DNA of 62,490 bases from Balamuthia mandrillaris (lineage: Eukaryota): positions 186,001 to 248,490 of the forward strand of contig JAVKOQ020000051.1 of NCBI GenBank assembly GCA_031835245.2, given 5' to 3'. The position numbers and the translations under genes were made by a program. The notes beneath the pieces are model-generated. The model was given only the letters and a program-made list of their open reading frames with translations. It was not told the origin of the DNA and did not search any database. Below, piece by piece: positions 7,208 through 62,490 of this stretch (positions are counted from its first letter, which is position 1; every line of letters starts with the position of its first letter).

Positions 7208-8437
7208 ATGGGCACCAAAGAGCACCAACAAACCGAACACGAAGAGATAGAGGAGAACCAAGTAGCGGGGGCAGAGTGGGAGCAACTGCCAGATGAGCTG
7301 CTCTCTTTGGTTTTGTCCGCGGTGGATCCTTTGTTCGTGGGCATCGCGGCAAGGACCTGTCGCGCTTGGTACCGCTGCGCTCCGCCTGCTCTTCGGGACC
7401 GGCTGTACCAAGCGGCAGTGTGCAGCTCTAAGCCACTGTTGCAATGGGCGGTGCAAGGGGAGGCCAAGACTGGCCTCTGCCCTGTGAACGAGGAACTCGC
7501 CGCCATGATCGCCAGACAGGGCCACTTGGAGCTGCTGAAGTGGGCGAGAGAGGGGCTGAACTGTCCTTGGGACGAGCACACTTGCAGCTTGGCCGCAGGG
7601 CAAGGTCACTTGCAACTGTTGCAGTGGGCCAGAGCCAACGGTTGTGCTTGGGGGGAGTGGACCTGCGTCGAAGCCGCCAAGAATGGCCAGGTGGAGGTGC
7701 TGAAATGGGCGAGAGAGAACGGATGTCCTTGGGACAGGCGTGTTTGCTGCTTTGCTGCCCAACGCGGGCAGTTGGAAGCACTAAAGTGGGCCAGGACCAA
7801 CGGGTGTCCTTGGGATCAACGAGCCTGCACCTGGGCCGCTGGGAACGGCCATTTGGAAGTGCTGCAATGGGCGAGAGAGAACGGATGCCCTTGGAGCGGG
7901 GATACTTGTTGTGAAGCTGCCTTAGCGGGGCGTTTGGAGGTGCTGCAATGGGCGAGAGAGAATGGATGCCCTTGGGATGAAAGGACTTGCTCCTCTGCTG
8001 CCTGGAACGGCCATTTGGAAGTGTTGCAATGGGCTCACGCCCACGGATGTCGTTGGACGGCAAGCACTTGCATGAATGCTGCTGCGAACGGCCATTTGGA
8101 GATGCTGAAATGGCTCACGGCCAATGGGTGCCCATGGAGCACATTCATTTGCCACATAGCTGCCCGGAGAGGGCAGTTGGAAGTGCTGAAATGGGCCAGA
8201 GAGAACGGCCGTCCCTGGGACGAAGAAACGTGTTCCATGGCTGCTGGGAACGGTCATTTGGAGGTGCTGAAATGGGCCAGAGAGCATGGTTGTCCTTGGG
8301 ACGAAAGAACTTGCACAGCGGCTGCAGAGAACGGCCATGTGGAAGTGCTGAAATGGGCCAGAGAGAACAAATGCCCTTGGACCACCCGCGCTCGTAAGTA
8401 TGGCGCAGAGCATGGATACGTAGAAGAGGAGAGCTAA
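7208..8437 (+). CDS. F-box-like plus ankyrin-repeat protein (27-aa CPW-type repeats), intronless
   Basis: WEQLPDELLSLVLS...CRAW is F-box-like. It is followed by about 11 repeats of GHLEVLKWARENGCPWDExTCxxAA. Confidence 0.9.
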   Translation: MGTKEHQQTEHEEIEENQVAGAEWEQLPDELLSLVLSAVDPLFVGIAARTCRAWYRCAPPALRDRLYQAAVCSSKPLLQWAVQGEAKTGLCPVNEELAAMIARQGHLELLKWAREGLNCPWDEHTCSLAAGQGHLQLLQWARANGCAWGEWTCVEAAKNGQVEVLKWARENGCPWDRRVCCFAAQRGQLEALKWARTNGCPWDQRACTWAAGNGHLEVLQWARENGCPWSGDTCCEAALAGRLEVLQWARENGCPWDERTCSSAAWNGHLEVLQWAHAHGCRWTASTCMNAAANGHLEMLKWLTANGCPWSTFICHIAARRGQLEVLKWARENGRPWDEETCSMAAGNGHLEVLKWAREHGCPWDERTCTAAAENGHVEVLKWARENKCPWTTRARKYGAEHGYVEEES

Positions 8438-54929: not shown

Positions 54930-56364
54930 ATGCCTGAGTGCCCACACAAGCGAGGCATACCGCACACCATTCGCGAGTATCCTGGCCAACGAAAAGATTT
55001 TCACCACAAGCAGTACAAAACCCCCAAAGAGACGGCTATTGCCATAAGAGGTATGCTTTTTGGTGTTCGTGCCATAGAGTTTTCAATTTTTTGTTGTTGC
55101 GCACGACGACCCTAACCAACGCGCGTCAGATGCTGCTGTAGCCAAAGCAAACACACTATGGCACCGGAGTTTATTGATGAGCTTTTTGGCTGGTGGTAAG
55201 TTTTAACAAGAGTGGCGTTGTGCACGTTCTTAAAATTTGTTTTCAAAACAGTGTTTGTTAGTTTCGGTGCTGAGTTTGCAGTTAACGTTGCTGGAGGAAG
55301 CCCAGACGTTGGAAGCTCAAACCCAGGCATTCAGAGGCTTCTTTTTGCCATACCTTTTGCGGTAGGCTTGCTCTTGCCTTTTAAACCACGTGGTTTCCAA
55401 GCTTCAATTTCTCATTGTCTTGACCTACCAACAGACGGGCCTCACGCTCATTATACTGTTTGGCGCTGAGCTCTTCACGGGCAACACGATGTTCATGACG
55501 ATGGGTGTGGTAACGCGGCGAGTGCCGCTATGGCGCGCTGGGCGCAATCTGCTTTTTGCCTTCTTTGGAAACTGGGCTGGGTGCGTGTTTGTAGCCGCCT
55601 TTTTTGCCTATTATGCCGACTTTTGGAAGGACGATCCGTGGAACTCATATGTGAAGGCAATAGCAGTCCGCAAGGTGGAGGAGTTTGATGCCTATGTCTA
55701 CTTTTTACGCTCCATTGCAGGAAACTGGCTGGTGTGCCTTGCTGTATTCATTGCCATGGCGGCTGAGGATATTGTGTCAAAGATGATTGGTGCCATCATC
55801 CCCATCGTTATTTTTGCAACTAGTGGCTTTGAGCATAGCATTGCCAACATGTTCTTGGTCACTGTTAGCATCATGTATGGCGCTGATGTGGACTATGGCA
55901 AGTTCATTTACAAGAACCTTATACCTGTCACAGTGGGTAACTTTATTGGTGGTAGCTTGTGTATGGCGATGGCTGCATGGTATCTTTACATCATTGAGCC
56001 CAAGCACCAGCACAAGTGGACCCACTACACACACTTTAACAATTCCCATGTACATAACATCCAACTTGCTATCACCAAGCCTACTTACTTTTTCAGGCTC
56101 TTGTGGGCAAAGCTTACAAGAAGAGAACTAAAGAAGTCACATGAAGATAATAAGTTCATCATCACTTTGCCTGTTGACACTCAAAACAAGCCCTCAACTA
56201 CTCTTACATCTCATTGTGTTGCAAATAGTGATTTGAGTAATGAAGAACAAGAAGTACCAAAAGATGATAGTGATGATAGTGATGTTGAAATGGGCACTAT
56301 AACATCAATGAACAAGACTTTTCCTTCAAATACAAGTGAAAGTGAATATAACAAAGAAATATAA
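54930..56364 (+). CDS. Formate/nitrite transporter (FNT); last host-type gene before the telomere
   Basis: KTPKET, SFLAG, FAVGL, GAELFTGN, FFGNWAG, AGNWLVCLA, GFEHSIANMF and VTVGNFIGG motifs. Confidence 0.93.
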
Positions 56365-57107
56365 TCTTTATAAATAAAATAATTAATTATTTATTTATAC
56401 AACAAAGACAATAGTAAGGGTTATGGGCTCAGATATTTTTATTCCTTTGGCAAAAACCTTGGTATTCTCATTTCCTCTTTTTCTTCATTTTGTTCAATTC
56501 ATTTCATAACTATTCTTTTTTCTTTAGCTGTTTCTATGTTGACTGAGCTAATATTGAAGAAGAAGCTTAGAAACTTGGATGAGTTGAAAGGCCAAGAATA
56601 CTCTCTTCAGAAGAGGTGAAGAAGTGGATCATTGACAGAGAAGAAAAGAAACTATATAAAACCTTTGAGTAGTTCAAAACAAAGGTATATTTCAATTTTT
56701 TTAATATCAACAAGCAAGGTTTAGGGTTCTATGCTCGATTTTGAGCTAAGAATTAGCTGTTAAAATATAATGATTGTATCATTTTAAAGAGCAACTTAAG
56801 GGCTATAAGAAGATATATTATATGTTTGGTATAAATAAAATGTTACAAAGTTAGAATATTTTTGGTTTAAAAAGTAAGAAAACTGTATTGTGCATAAATT
56901 TTGCACAAATACTGCTCGATTTTCGCGAAAAACAAAAAGAAAGAAGAAAGAATCACACGCCAAAGCACTTTTAGATCTTGTAGTGCTGATTGTGAGCTTT
57001 AACAGTCATCTTTTTTCAAATGGTTTGTTGCTAAAGTGTTGTTTTTGTTGTTTTCATTATTGTTGTAGTTTTTAATTATTATAAAACACAAAAATAGGTA
57101 TGCAACA

Positions 57108-57342
57108 TGTTGGTAAAATCACCAACACTTATCTCAAGACTCCTCATGTTGGATCCGTCCCGGACCCTCAGCTCTCCTTTCTTTTGTATCCCCCATCCTT
57201 CCTTTCTCCCTTTTCCCCTTTCTCTCGGTGTACTTTGAAGCAACGTCGGAGATTCACTCTCGTTGTCCTTCCTCTATTCTCTTGAATACACTCCTTGTCT
57301 CGTCACCGACTCTTTCCTTCCTAAGGTTGGATTTAACCAACA
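57108..57342 (+). mobile_element. Putative 5' LTR (235 bp) of an LTR retrotransposon
   Basis: Begins TGTTGGTAAAATC and ends GATTTAACCAACA (TG...CA, 12/13 inverted match). Composition shifts from AT-rich to GC-richer at 57108. Lies directly upstream of a gag-like ORF. Confidence 0.7.
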
Positions 57343-57395
57343 TTTTTTTTTGACTTACATAAGTGATTCAAATCCCCTCTTGCGCTACGCACATC

Positions 57396-58152
57396 ATGGA
57401 AGCCACAGCCGCTCTCGACACCCTCCGTGAACAGCTTCGCAAGGCACAACAGGAGTACCTCCACATGCTCCAACAATCTTTTCAACTTGAGCTCGACATC
57501 CCCAGCTGTCCCGAGACTGAACGCGTCGCCAAAGAAGAAGAACAGCGCAAGTTAGACGAAGTCGCAGAACACACTAGAAAGGCCATGGAACGGTTACAAC
57601 AACGTATAGACAGCTTTGCTATTTTCCTCGCATCCACCTCGGCCACACTAGGCAATTCTTCCACATGCAACACTTCCGCTGCCGCTGTTTCTCCTCCCTC
57701 GCCCGTTCCACAGATCTCTCCCATACAGTCACCTCGTTCGAGTTCACCCTCTCCCGTTGACGTTTCCGTCAACAACACAACTGCTTCCAACAGCACACAC
57801 GTTGCCTCTGTCCCAGAAACACAGAACAACACAACTACTCCTTCCCTTCCTACTCAGAAGAAAATGCCTCGCCTTCCCCCCGGACTACCTAAGTTCGACG
57901 TCAGCAAGCGCCAGGACCCCGCTCTTCACACCATGGAACTGGAGTATCACCTCAACGCCTACAACTACCCTGAGGATAGATGGACGCAAGCCCTCATCAC
58001 CACCCTTGTTGGAGACGGACGTCTTTGGGCCATTAGCGCTCTACGAGACCAACCATGGAACGTCGCCCGAGACCTCTTCCATCGGCACTACCACCTTCCA
58101 GACATCGAGGCCACAACGATTGAGGCCGTCACGTCGTTTCGACAGAAGCCTG
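57396..58152 (+). pseudogene. gag: Ty3/Gypsy-like gag, 3'-truncated by telomeric repeats
   Basis: N-terminal coiled coil and Pro/Ser linker, then the capsid-like LPKFD...YPEDRW...LVGDGRLW...W...LF..HY...FRQKP. The frame then runs into (TTAGGG)3. No pol is present. Confidence 0.75.
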
Positions 58153-58170
58153 TTAGGGTTAGGGTTAGGG
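58153..58170 (+). repeat. Internal telomeric tract (TTAGGG)3
   Basis: Three perfect repeats in the same orientation as the terminal array. Confidence 0.95.
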
Positions 58171-58442
58171 GCGAGTACTCTTAAACCTAAGCTAGCCTCT
58201 CCTTGTAACTTAAAGAAATATCATAAAAAACTAAGTCTAAAATAGATACACTTATATTGTGATGAAATTTTTTTTAATCTTTTCTAAAGTTGTAAATATC
58301 AATAAAAAGGCAGTTTTGTTAAAATATTTTTATAATACTAAGAAAAAAATGTTGAAGATAAAGAAATAACAACAACATAAAAAAAAACTTAATATCATAA
58401 AAACATTTCAACATGAAAATAGAAAATAAAAAACAAACAAAA

Positions 58443-61149
58443 TCAAATATTAAAATGTTGACAAATAGCTTTTTCACTACCATACTTAAGCATTAAGTTT
58501 CTCCATTTGTCTTTGCAGTCCACATTTGTCCTGAGTTGCTGAGGTAAAGTTGATGCAATCTCAACCCAAGTAGCTTTTTTATGAAGACGCAAATGAATCA
58601 ACTCTTTTGTTTCTTCATCACTCCAAGGTTGATGTTGACGATGATTGGAAGTTTTGATGCGAGTTCTTGGAGTAGAAGTTTGAAGTTGAAAGGGTCCATT
58701 TTTTCATTTTTTGTAAGGTACTTGCTTCAAAGGTGAATGGTTTTGTAGATGAGGTAATGCAGGTTCTATGAATGCTTCCAAAAGCTCATCTAAAAGTTGA
58801 AAGTTGCCTGCCAACAAGCTTGCAATATGTCTTCTTCCAACAATCGTTTTGATGTGATTAAGTGGTGGTGGTGGTGATGATGCATCTTGAGAGTTATTTC
58901 TTTGCTTGAATGCTTCCATTTCCTGGCTCATCTCTTCTTCAACTTCATCTTCATGATTGTCTATCCATGCATGTAAGCACTTTTGCCATAAAGACTTGCA
59001 TAATTTAGCATGATCTGACTTGGATAAATCAGTTCTGCTTTGGAATCTAAAATAAATAAAAATTAATGAATAAAATGAGTGAGTTAAGCACAAGAAAAAT
59101 AAACAAAATAAACAAAATAATAATAATAATAAAGTAAAAAATACACCAACCTTTCCATAACTTTGTCATAAAAGGCTTCATAATTAGTTTGTAAAGACCA
59201 CTTTGAAGTCAAAGGTTCTTTCAAATTATGAAATACTTCTTTGGTAACTAAAGTTGGATCCATCAAACTGGTTGAAGAGGCTTCACCTAATTGATTGTAT
59301 GTGCAAAAGAAAATAAAAAGTAAGATAAGTTTTTCTTTCTTTCTCAAATTAAAAAAAAAAGAAAAAATAAAATACCTGAGGAAGAAACTAATCTATTAAC
59401 AACCATGGATTTGATAGCAGTGCTTTTCACATAACGTTGTTGAGAACGTCCATAAGGCTGCCAACCAGCAATAAAAGCTGTAGATTCCAGTACTGCATTT
59501 CTTTGTTGACTGTCATTCAAACCCTGCTTGATCAAAGCAGTGCAAATGAAACCAGCTCTCAAAGAATAGAAAGTAAAGAGGCCTGGAGGATAGTTGGCTT
59601 GGCTAGCACATTTCTTCAGTCTGGCATTCAAAGCATCAGGGCTCAGTCCCCACAAAGAAGTAGCTTGTTGTTGAGGAGAAAGATTCCAAGCAGAAAACTC
59701 TTCTAAGCATAAAGAATGAGTTTCTTGAAGATGAAGATTAAGCCAGTAGATGAAGTCAGCTGTGGGGTTGATGTGAGGAGGAGGATGAAGATAGCCTTCC
59801 AAAGTAATCATGTGATTCCAATCTCCTGGTTTTCCTTTGGTAACTTGATGAAGAAGTGAAAAGAAGCAGAGACTGTGAGGATCAGAGGGATCTTGGATGA
59901 TGAAGTTCTGAAAATGTCCAAGAAGAATGTTGGAAGCTGTGATGGCTCTAGCTCCAGTGCTTACACTATGCAACCAACAACTGGCATCTCTTGCTTTTTT
60001 GCGTTTACCATCCGGAATCATCGTTATGATTTGAATCACATCATCCCTCAAACAAGCATCTCTCATTCTTCCTGATCTTGTACAAGATGGAGCACGTTGT
60101 TTGCACTTCTTTGCTGCCAAATTCACAGTATCTTGTATCTTTTGTGGTACTTGCTCTCCTCCTGTTTCTTCCATATGAATATGATACAAACTTGCCACAA
60201 TAACATCTTTTGCTGAAGTCAAAGCATATCCAACAGTCATCACCAACCATTCCACAAATGCTCCAAGATGATGTTTATCTGCATCCAAAGGAAAAGGTTC
60301 AAGTTTCCACTTATCACAAAATGCTGTCCAAATCAATCTGGCCCAGGCATGTTTTCGCAAAGTTGAATCACTCCATCATGAAGAAGTTGCACTCAAGTAT
60401 TCCCATCTTTCTAACATTAAAGAAGGAAGCATACGAATAGCTCGAGACACTCTTGCTGATGGGGTAGTGGTTGGTAATGCTTGTGATGATTGTTGTTGTG
60501 GTTGTACTTTCTCTTTTCTTTTTGTTTTTGTTGGTTCATTTTCTGCTTCACTTTCTGAAGAAGAAGAAGAAGAAGAAGAAGAACAATCTACCAAATCAAT
60601 GAAAAGAGTAGAAGTTGTTGTTGGAGTTGTTGATGTTGTAGTCAAGTCTATTAAAGAAGAAGAAAAAGAAGAAGAAGAAGAAGAAGAAAAATAAAAATCA
60701 TCATTATTGGTCTCTCTTTCCTTCTCTTTTTCTTCTTCATCTGATGTTGCAAAAAAACTATCATTATCTTCTTCAAAATTAAAAGCATCATTGTCATCAT
60801 AAAAAATGGGAATGAATGAAGAAGAAGAAGAAGAAGAAGAAGAAGAAGAAGAAAAAAAAGAAGAAGATGATGATGATGATGATTTCAAGGTGGAAGTTGA
60901 AGTTGTAGAAGAAGTAGATGCAGATGATATTATCATTTTTTGTTTTTGTTGAGTGTGAAAGGATCTTTGAAGCAAGATAAAAATGAATAAGAAATAATAA
61001 TTCAAAAAAAATTACTTTTAAAATAAATAAACAAACCTTTTACATTTTTTGCTACAAAAAAGTTGATTTGATTGAGGACAAGGAATCAAATTCAAACAAA
61101 GTGAACAATGTACTTTTTTTGAAGTTGAAGGTAGCATTGTTGTTGACAT
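58443..61149 (-). pseudogene. Zinc finger - tyrosine recombinase - telobox Myb gene; exons 61149-61037, 60964-59376, 59286-59151, 59046-58443; two in-frame TGA
   Basis: All three GT-AG junctions keep frame (2442 nt = 813 codons + stop). Motifs: CSLC...FCSKKC; STGAR, VTKGK, YSLRAG, AGW, QRY; WSDEE...W...RTNVDCKDKWRNL. Premature TGA at 60378-60376 and 58706-58704. Confidence 0.85.
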
Positions 61150-61820
61150 AAAATATTGGTAGAAAATAAAAAAAAAATTCACTTAAAAAGACTTTGTAAA
61201 AGAAAAAACACAATTAAAAAAATAAGAGGGGAAAAACAAGTGGAAAAAGTGTGAACTGTTTGTGAAAAAATAAAAAAATAAACTTTAATTGTAAAAAAAA
61301 TGTTTGAGGAGTTAAATTTTGGATTTTTGTAGACATGTCGACAGAAAATAACCGAAAAACCATAATAGAAAGGCGCTATCGAAGGATGACTATTTAAAAG
61401 GGCGAAAAAAACATTATATTTTTCGAAAGCTCCAGGGAAAAGAAGGGGAGATTAACCTAGGTCGTTCAATTGATTGATTGGCTTACGTTGTTACATATGA
61501 ACCAATAATTGAAAGCATTTAGTACTGGTGAAAGAACAATGCTGGAAATTGTTGGGACAGGGGCACTGCCTTGCCATATCTTTCCGTTAAGACAAAATGG
61601 CTGCATGGGCCCACCCGCTTCTCATTCCTGCATTCACTTGAAGAAGGAAATATCCGTTGAAATATTGCATTGAGATTGGGTTCCTTTGGAAAGGTTTGTT
61701 TGGTATAGAGAAGAGTAGTCACTTAGAAGGACAACCTGACTCTGGAGTGATTTTTTTTTGAAATTTTTTTTAAATATAGCAATTTTATCCAAGTTAAAAA
61801 AAAAAACAAATGATTAAAAG

Positions 61821-62187
61821 CTAAGTCTACAACTAAACAAGCTATGTTTATGAAAATTTACTTATCTATGTTCCAGGCTATGGAAAATTGAATACAATTG
61901 GTTTAAGCCTTAGAAAACATTATGTACTTGAGAAATTAATTATTTAAGTCAAAAACAAAATAATTCACTCTCACAATAAATTTAAAAAACAGAACTAAAA
62001 AATACTTTCCAGATATAGTCTTAAAATAACACAAACAAGGTGTTGCATTGCTGAAATGCTTTATTTACTGCTTAAAAAAAAAAAAGAAAGGTGAAAAACT
62101 TAATGTTTTTTGATATTTTTATTTTAAAAATAGAATATTTGACAAGAACATAAAGTTTACAATTAAATAAGCTATGTTTATGAAAAT
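61821..62187 (+). repeat. 37-bp degenerate direct repeat (61821-61857 and 62151-62187)
   Basis: CTAAGTCTACAACTAAACAAGCTATGTTTATGAAAAT versus TAAAGTTTACAATTAAATAAGCTATGTTTATGAAAAT; the last 19 bp are identical. Confidence 0.85.
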
Positions 62188-62457
62188 ATGTTGACTAAGT
62201 CTAACTTAACAAAAGAAAAGGACAAATTATCAAAAAAGAGTGTATTTCAACAGAAAGAAAGAAAGACAACAGGAAAAATACTCCATTATTGCTTTAGAGT
62301 ACATTAAGAAAAAGGAAAAAGAGAATAATGGAAGACTTGAAAGTAAGTATTTTACATAAGAAGTCTTGAAATAAGTGTTGATGATTTTATTAACATACTT
62401 CCTCTTTTAAGAAAAATAGAAAGATAAAAAAATAAAAGAAAAGAATAAGAGTATTCA

Positions 62458-62490
62458 AGGGTTAGGGTTAGGGTTAGGGTTAGGGTTAGG
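62458..62490 (+). repeat. Terminal telomeric array (TTAGGG)n, right chromosome end
   Basis: AGGG(TTAGGG)4TTAGG runs to the end of the window with the G-strand pointing outward. Confidence 0.93.

Follow-up and report, generated by a model that had tools for sequence, protein, structure and literature searches.

Introduction

Tyrosine recombinases act on sites that consist of 11–13-bp arms and a 6–8-bp spacer, and a circle model has been proposed for Cryptons, which carry such an enzyme (PMC3212892, in the passages available). The elements specific for telomere repeats, i.e. TATE, SART/TRAS and Giardia Gil, are retroelements in the parts of the literature at hand. TRF1 reads bases through K421, D422 and R425, together with R380 of its arm (available parts of PMC2377444, Table 3, and PMC8867601).

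The window analyzed here is a 62,490-nt stretch of the Balamuthia mandrillaris contig JAVKOQ020000051.1. It holds a decayed gene for a Cre-fold recombinase fused to a Myb domain. We consider it rather probable that this gene belongs to a Crypton-like DNA transposon, in which the Myb domain, by binding the telomere repeats of the recombination site, would steer insertion into telomere tracts.

The window and its repeated unit

The gene lies in a repeated unit situated between two telomere tracts. Features of this region are as follows.

57107–58151, plus strand: flank, an LTR-like repeat (57107–57342) and a gag-like open reading frame, both part of a multicopy element that breaks off at 58151, directly before the telomere tract
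58152–58170, plus strand: internal telomere tract, (TTAGGG)3, the fixed left junction of the element, which caps the truncated gag-like open reading frame
58172–62457, no strand assigned: AT-rich, CpG-depleted repeated unit carrying the recombinase-Myb gene; its right end differs among copies
62163–62396, minus strand: decayed copy, inside the unit, of the LTR-like repeat 57107–57342 (blastn 5e-12; alignment score 174 against a shuffle maximum of 80.5)
62458–62490, plus strand: terminal telomere repeats (TTAGGG), 5.5 copies, running to the window's end

The unit between both tracts is 4.3 kb in length and has 32% GC and a CpG observed/expected ratio of 0.23, as compared with 47% and 0.79 in window positions 1–55900. 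A search of window positions 56400–62490 against Rfam gave 11 matches, all far under the gathering score.

The flank element is multicopy, with varied loose ends at 57108 in sequencing-run contigs. Other copies of its gag-like open reading frame show different letters beyond 58151, and the continuation of the open reading frame is seen as a loose end at 58152. The "gag" label is one that we presume from likeness; the open reading frame gives no Pfam match. The LTR-like element (57107–58151, plus strand) displays TG...CA ends with a 6-bp inverted repeat, carries a T-run where an obvious tRNA primer site would be, and has low-level RNA reads in runs X21 and X22.

Several other observations concern the window at large. 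A GC-richer island at 61400–61750, inside the unit, attracts RNA reads from either strand. These carry differences and loose ends and probably come from another repeat family; the island has no Pfam or Rfam match. Positions 61794–61857 and 62123–62187 form a direct repeat of about 65 bp (77% identity, with a 35-bp core at 91%) near the decayed LTR copy. CpG loss (55980–57100) starts in the 3′ part of a formate/nitrite transporter open reading frame, with no CpG in 55980–56364, which suggests methylation-driven decay spreading into the last host gene. At 7681–8384 there is a tandem array of 81-bp units (27 residues each), which we take to be ankyrin-like.

Gene structure and splicing

The spliced gene model reads as follows.

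59376–60936, minus strand: exon 1, a low-complexity N-terminus followed by predicted Cre-like core-binding and catalytic domains (R330, K367, H457, which is Tyr here, R460, W492, Y502)
60376–60378, minus strand: premature TGA, codon 187; most homologues have Arg here, as do the major contigs of runs X4 and X10
59287–59375, minus strand: intron 1, 89 nt, GT-AG, skipped in X5 record 21
59151–59286, minus strand: exon 2, from the spliced model and an X5 contig
59047–59150, minus strand: intron 2, 104 nt, GT-AG, skipped in X5 record 21
58443–59046, minus strand: exon 3, with a helical linker, a premature TGA, the Myb domain and the stop codon (58445–58443), from the spliced model and an X5 contig
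58704–58706, minus strand: premature TGA, codon 680; Arg codon in other copies
58494–58634, minus strand: single Myb domain with a TRF-like recognition helix (K at 58514–58512, D at 58511–58509, R at 58502–58500; the arm Arg is His here, 58634–58632)

The first-pass annotation had read through the TGA at 58706–58704 into a Myb segment and had joined this to the recombinase across two frame-preserving introns. The Myb segment beyond the TGA is in frame and matches PF00249 above the cut-off (E = 4e-08). Both introns preserve the frame and have GT-AG borders, and in X5 record 21 (749 nt, 2 differences) the exons are joined at both predicted positions, the intron 1 join being ambiguous by 2 nt (AG). 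Alignments of intronless homologues also span both exon junctions. The length of 813 aa given for the read-through protein has to be corrected, as the spliced frame from the ATG at 60936 has 766 codons and two internal TGAs. The second in-frame TGA, at 60378–60376, was absent from that annotation.

Run X5 is labelled "DNA?". It is probably RNA, since its contigs span the exons but leave out both introns, and depth is almost nil over 60602–62350; it is possible instead that the X5 contigs lacking introns come from an intronless DNA copy. Raw RNA reads of X21 and X22 (3–5% of each run) give a depth of 0 over the gene except for 0.36 in one low-complexity bin.

Decay of the window copy

Five of the catalytic codons proposed initially are found as stated: R at 59949–59947, K at 59838–59836, R at 59559–59557, W at 59463–59461 and Y at 59433–59431. 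The residue written as the "x" of an xSLR motif is a Tyr and not the catalytic His, and this position is His in 30 of 32 aligned rows. With a second TGA and a Tyr in place of the catalytic His, the window gene is a decayed copy and not a read-through gene.

Other copies in the sequencing runs are less damaged, in a comparison where no single contig record covers the entire gene. Major contigs of X4 and X10 have Arg at both stop positions, His at HxxR and Arg in the Myb arm. At codon 680, Arg accounts for all depth in X4, X5 and X10 and for 1266 of 1793 in X1. At codon 187, TGA is kept in X5 record 22, the only X5 contig there, and in most X1 depth. The HxxR position is His in contigs of X1, X4, X5 and X10, and the Myb arm residue, His in the window, is Arg in the major contigs of X4, X5 and X10. 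Programmed read-through of TGA or a changed genetic code was considered and is ruled out by the Arg codons that other copies have at both places. Among the 27 displayed differences between the window and the major X4 contigs, 22 have a C:G pair in X4 where the window has T:A, and 7 of these lie at CpG; the excess would fit cytosine deamination.

Recombinase fold and active site

A phage-integrase fold had been expected for the recombinase, and structure prediction agrees. The model of window exon 1 (pLDDT 90) has Cre as its top match (E = 6.5e-07, probability 1.0, TM 0.55–0.6), as does the model of the intact homologue P0012 (E = 5.1e-07). Sequence profiles detect little of this: Pfam on exon 1 alone gives no integrase match, and PF00589 is matched in only 6 of 33 aligned members. 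The neighbours of the recombinase in the atlas are phage-integrase and ALOG/integrase clusters (score 0.93). The catalytic positions R-K-H-R-W-Y are invariant in all of the 126–137 rows that cover each of them, among the best 150 of 337 matches. By its predicted fold and the catalytic set of its family, the window gene is placed in the Cre-like tyrosine recombinase superfamily.

A conserved recombinase-Myb family

Of 7998 proteins scored in a profile search, 40 were obtained as matches, and 23 of these carried a precomputed PF00249 annotation. The alignment set consists of 33 members, i.e. 32 of the 40 and P0005; eight partial or redundant sequences were left out. PF00249 is matched in 29 of the 33, and thus the fusion is a conserved architecture of the family. 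A HMMER scan of 1.84 billion representatives gave 337 cluster matches at E ≤ 1e-30; of the best 150, the catalytic core is covered in 124, the Myb helix in 86 and both in 83.

Relatives are found in Balamuthia, in oxymonads and in metagenomes. Those with a named host belong to Balamuthia, Monocercomonoides exilis or Blattamonas nauphoetae, each of which has several paralogues. The closest named relatives of the window gene are B. mandrillaris proteins. No reverse transcriptase was found in the 28 of the 150 matches that were scanned (mostly the longest), nor among the 33 aligned members or the scanned stretches of the window, and the 33 members show no match to GCR1_C or DUF3504. Two confirmed related loci, L001 and L002, were obtained from 78 candidates in a metagenome scan. 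Scans of viral contigs yielded 0 of 31 and 0 of 34 candidates, and genome contigs 0 of 52. A protein search with the Myb region returned 3 family members among 6 candidates.

Some members show additional domains. Five close members (P0025, P0027, P0028, P0030 and P0031) have two tandem Myb domains, and P0046 and P0128 are fused to a ubiquitin C-terminal hydrolase domain (PF00443).

The Myb domain

The K-D-x-x-R set that corresponds to the base contacts of TRF1 is present in the window and in 21 of 29 aligned rows. The arm Arg is found in 26 of the 29, and equivalents of TRF1 R415 and W383 in all 29. A helix 2–3 query aligned without gaps to TRF2 and Terfa, with zebrafish Terfa giving the top single-domain score (15.3 bits) among five alignments displayed, and 13 of its 23 matches are telomere-binding proteins. 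Judged by these residues, the predicted reading helix is telobox-like.

Over the whole domain the picture differs, and the proposal of a TRF-type telobox Myb holds in part. The base-contact residues are kept in most close homologues, but the whole-domain family profile does not favour TRF over c-Myb: single c-Myb repeats score 25–31 bits, TRF1 and TRF2 19–26 bits. At the Leu420 position 26 of 29 rows have Cys, and the loop for the most part follows the c-Myb pattern. Pfam detects neither a TRFH domain nor a plant Myb extension.

The domain could then be a general DNA-binding module, similar to c-Myb, CDC5 or trihelix proteins, that reads some other sequence, with the telomere association having another cause. 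Consistent with this are c-Myb and Trichomonas Myb repeats that score level with or above the TRFs, a match to GT-1, and atlas neighbours that are only generic Myb clusters (best score 0.88). The helix also diverges in about half of the tree: among the 83 distant relatives K-D-x-x-R is strictly present in 25 and in relaxed form (K/R-D-x-x-R/K) in 34, and relatives lacking the set fall mostly in one half of the core tree. However, the displayed c-Myb and MYB21 repeats lack the full K-D-x-x-R that TRF2 and Terfa have, and the inverted octamer described below varies with the host repeat. We consider a general module very improbable here.

A core-tree clade (P0123, P0125, P0131, P0138, P0147, P0159, P0162, P0164 and P0166) has intact catalytic residues and a helix 3 that is different yet conserved within it. 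It may read another repeat.

Telomere tracts and a putative recombination site

The telomere setting of the window element, with which a target-selecting role of the Myb domain had been said to agree, recurs in the family. Members are tied to telomere repeats in unrelated hosts, i.e. in the window, L001, L002 and Blattamonas. Both metagenome loci fetched (L001 and L002) start with telomere tracts, and 0 of 200 shuffles reach their counts.

L001 is intronless and shares 543 of 547 residues with P0029. It starts with two tandem copies of the unit, each opening with three TTAGGG repeats, and telomere-like letters lie between them. Only under code 6 does L002 give an open frame, of 162 codons, and TTGGGG repeats lie upstream of it. 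TTGGGG is the telomere repeat of ciliates such as Tetrahymena. In Blattamonas, P0090 and P0174 share 98% identity as far as the first Myb residues, at which P0090 runs into about four telomere repeats and stops four codons later. This stop is in the same register as that of the window's truncated open reading frame, P0090 being known from protein only. Telomere-frame peptides are found at the start or end of the protein in 5 of 150 matches (shuffle mean 0.07, maximum 1); as a control, six other alternating peptides were found at termini for all other residue pairs together.

The tracts adjoin a candidate site, with a function proposed from its arrangement.

58159–58190, plus strand: putative 32-bp recombination site, consisting of a G-strand octamer, 16 nt and an inverted octamer (58183–58190, 7 of 8 positions matching)

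Exactly 16 nt separate the last G-strand octamer of the tract from an inverted octamer that matches the host's repeat at 7 of 8 positions; this holds for the window, for each of the two L001 units and for L002. The inverted octamer is of the TTAGGG type in the window and L001 and of the TTGGGG type in L002, which has the ciliate code. All three loci with flanking DNA thus show the site together with a short tract of the host type. Positions with a 7-of-8 inverted octamer number 2 of 4278, 2 of 1919 and 1 of 1167 in the three sequences. The chance of a shared gap of any length from 0 to 44 is about 2e-08 given local composition, for a pattern that was noticed post hoc. The tract between the L001 units has no inverted octamer at 16 nt. 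By analogy, the 32-bp arrangement would fit the size of a tyrosine-recombinase (loxP-like) site.

Two of these loci count against the preferred reading: in L001 the Myb helix of P0029 is degenerate although the site is intact, and L002 is frameshifted and ends before any Myb domain. Since the inverted half-site lies inside the element, the Myb domain may read the element's own end, or both this end and the target, and the arrangement suggests as much.

The site pattern gave two matches in viral contigs, both in small genomes of the Rep/capsid kind that have long telomere hairpins but lack a recombinase; they are unrelated to the family and give no information on the site. These are L003 (2170–2285) and L004 (1170–1290), related small circular genomes with Rep-like and capsid-like open reading frames, in which the intergenic region has a long inverted TTAGGG/CCCTAA array that could form a telomere-repeat hairpin. 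We presume from likeness that they are CRESS/crucivirus-like.

Ends of the element and mobility

The left end of the element is fixed. X5 record 17 contains the same three repeats and 58152–58311 next to a different flank. One left end with two flanks, together with the paralogues in Balamuthia and Monocercomonoides, supports mobility. The right end is variable: telomere repeats begin at 62457 in X1 and at 62315 in X10, and an X4 contig continues for more than 150 nt. In X1, telomere joints also occur inside the element, at 58441 and 60064. The distal end looks eroded and healed, as the right-end joints vary between runs; with the right end varying, neither a counterpart of the site on that side nor a target duplication could be identified. 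The window, the loci and the run contigs showed no element complete at both ends and no junction of an excised circle. An 11-bp terminal inverted repeat with a dif-like circle junction was considered and dropped, as the right end differs between runs; the X1 joint of 62457 to 58152 is simply the right end followed by telomere repeats.

The short tracts might instead be the ends of a telomere-bearing element. Its Myb domain would bind these ends and insertion would take place at short microhomologies as in CryptonF, host telomere DNA not being needed. The window and X5 record 17 differ in their flanks but both have exactly three repeats ahead of the site, and three to four are found in L001, L002 and P0090. 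In the window the gene has its 3′ side next to the site and points toward it; in L001 and L002 the 5′ side faces the site and the gene points away. Inward-pointing G-strand tracts at both ends would account for these opposite orientations, which count against the preferred reading. Flanks often finish in TAG(G) or TGG, comparable to the donor-target microhomology of CryptonF (PMC9977147, in the part available). However, the same microhomologies are seen where repeats cap broken copies inside the element (X1 58441 and 60064), which is what healing by telomerase would produce. The window copy sits at a chromosome end, and the right end has no inward-pointing tract or inner half-site. We regard this possibility as unlikely, though the best of the alternatives. 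The Myb domain would read telomere repeats in this case as well as in the transposon reading that we prefer.

Alternatively, the unit could be a subtelomeric repeat that spreads between chromosome ends by host recombination or break-induced replication, with the recombinase gene a passenger or a tamed host gene. The Y′ element of yeast is a comparable spreading subtelomeric repeat. A decayed LTR fragment within the amplified unit, the ragged, healed right ends, the inactive window copy and the near-zero gene reads in X21 and X22 would all fit such spreading. It leaves unexplained, however, the fixed-spacing, host-repeat-matched site in distant lineages, the catalytic residues invariant over 126–137 rows, and the Blattamonas copy behind a truncated sister gene, and we consider it improbable.

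Proposed mechanism

For the preferred reading, insertion of a telomere-targeted Crypton-like transposon, we propose that two Myb domains would bind the outer octamers and the recombinase would cut within the 16-bp core. An excised circle would then recombine with a short TTAGGG tract, mostly that of a freshly healed break or of the telomere base. Distal ends would later erode and be re-capped by telomerase, and copies would decay through cytosine deamination. Balamuthia telomeres have about 90 repeats (bioRxiv 2025.02.25.640156, in the part available), and random insertion into telomeres of this length would not give tracts that always consist of only three to four repeats, a point against the preferred reading.

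A broader proposal, to which we give a little less than an even chance, is that of an undescribed DNA transposon superfamily in Amoebozoa, Metamonada and hosts with the ciliate code. In this superfamily a TRF-like Myb domain would make telomere repeats into a loxP-like site, the half-site would co-vary with the host repeat (TTAGGG or TTGGGG), and the element would be added onto newly healed breaks. No description of the family was found in a literature search that did not extend to Repbase or to most subscription papers; such elements may be listed in the additional files of PMC3212892 or in the closed supplements that accompany the Balamuthia preprint on bioRxiv.

If the proposal is true, a DNA-only element with a shelterin-type reader would reach a safe-harbour niche by a new route and act as a new force on the chromosome ends of protists. 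Its enzyme would also be a naturally occurring Cre-like integrase in which the targeting module can be separated and seemingly follows the host repeat in its specificity. Crypton DNA-binding domains have earlier been tamed into host proteins (PMC3212892, in the passages available), and the family would for that reason bear on the origins of telobox domains.

Comparison with known systems

Cre/loxP (PDB 1crx, 4crx) resembles the family in both domain folds, in an active site of the R-K-H-R-W-Y type and in site length. However, identity to Cre is 11–18%, and Cre has no helical linker and no Myb domain. The teloboxes of TRF1, TRF2, Terfa, NgTRF1/TBP1 and Tbf1 resemble the family Myb in being single and C-terminal, and share with it the R-T-x-V-x-x-K-D-R/K-W-R signature and a basic N-terminal arm.

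Among transposons, Crypton and CryptonF are similar in having a single gene for a tyrosine recombinase with a C-terminal DNA-binding domain, in lacking a reverse transcriptase and in being multicopy (PMC3212892, PMC9977147, PMC13465315, in the passages available). CryptonF carries GCR1_C where the family has Myb, and the word "Myb" is absent from the main text of PMC3212892 and PMC13465315 as available. Telomere targeting is not mentioned in the available passages of PMC3212892, PMC9977147 and PMC13465315. Cryptons are marked by 4–6-bp direct repeats at both termini; here the right end is variable and probably truncated.

TATE of Leishmania braziliensis also has a tyrosine recombinase and a fixed position in telomeric hexamers, and it clusters at chromosome ends (PMC2696322, PMC6681497, in part). 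A fixed hexamer register of this kind is found in the window, L001 and L002, and in P0090 from protein only. The likeness is one of position. TATE belongs to the retroelements, has domains for reverse transcriptase and polymerase and shows a TT duplication, and "Myb" is absent from the available text of PMC6681497. Reverse transcriptase with RNase H, as in TATE/VIPER-like elements, was not found in the family sequences scanned. TRAS of Bombyx and Tribolium is specific for telomere repeats, and the Myb domain of its enzyme is proposed to aid specificity, but TRAS is a non-LTR retrotransposon that uses an APE endonuclease and a reverse transcriptase, i.e. a different chemistry (PMC5537684, in the part available).

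The family thus appears, by analogy, to be built like CryptonF with Myb in place of GCR1_C, placed like TATE and Myb-bearing like TRAS.
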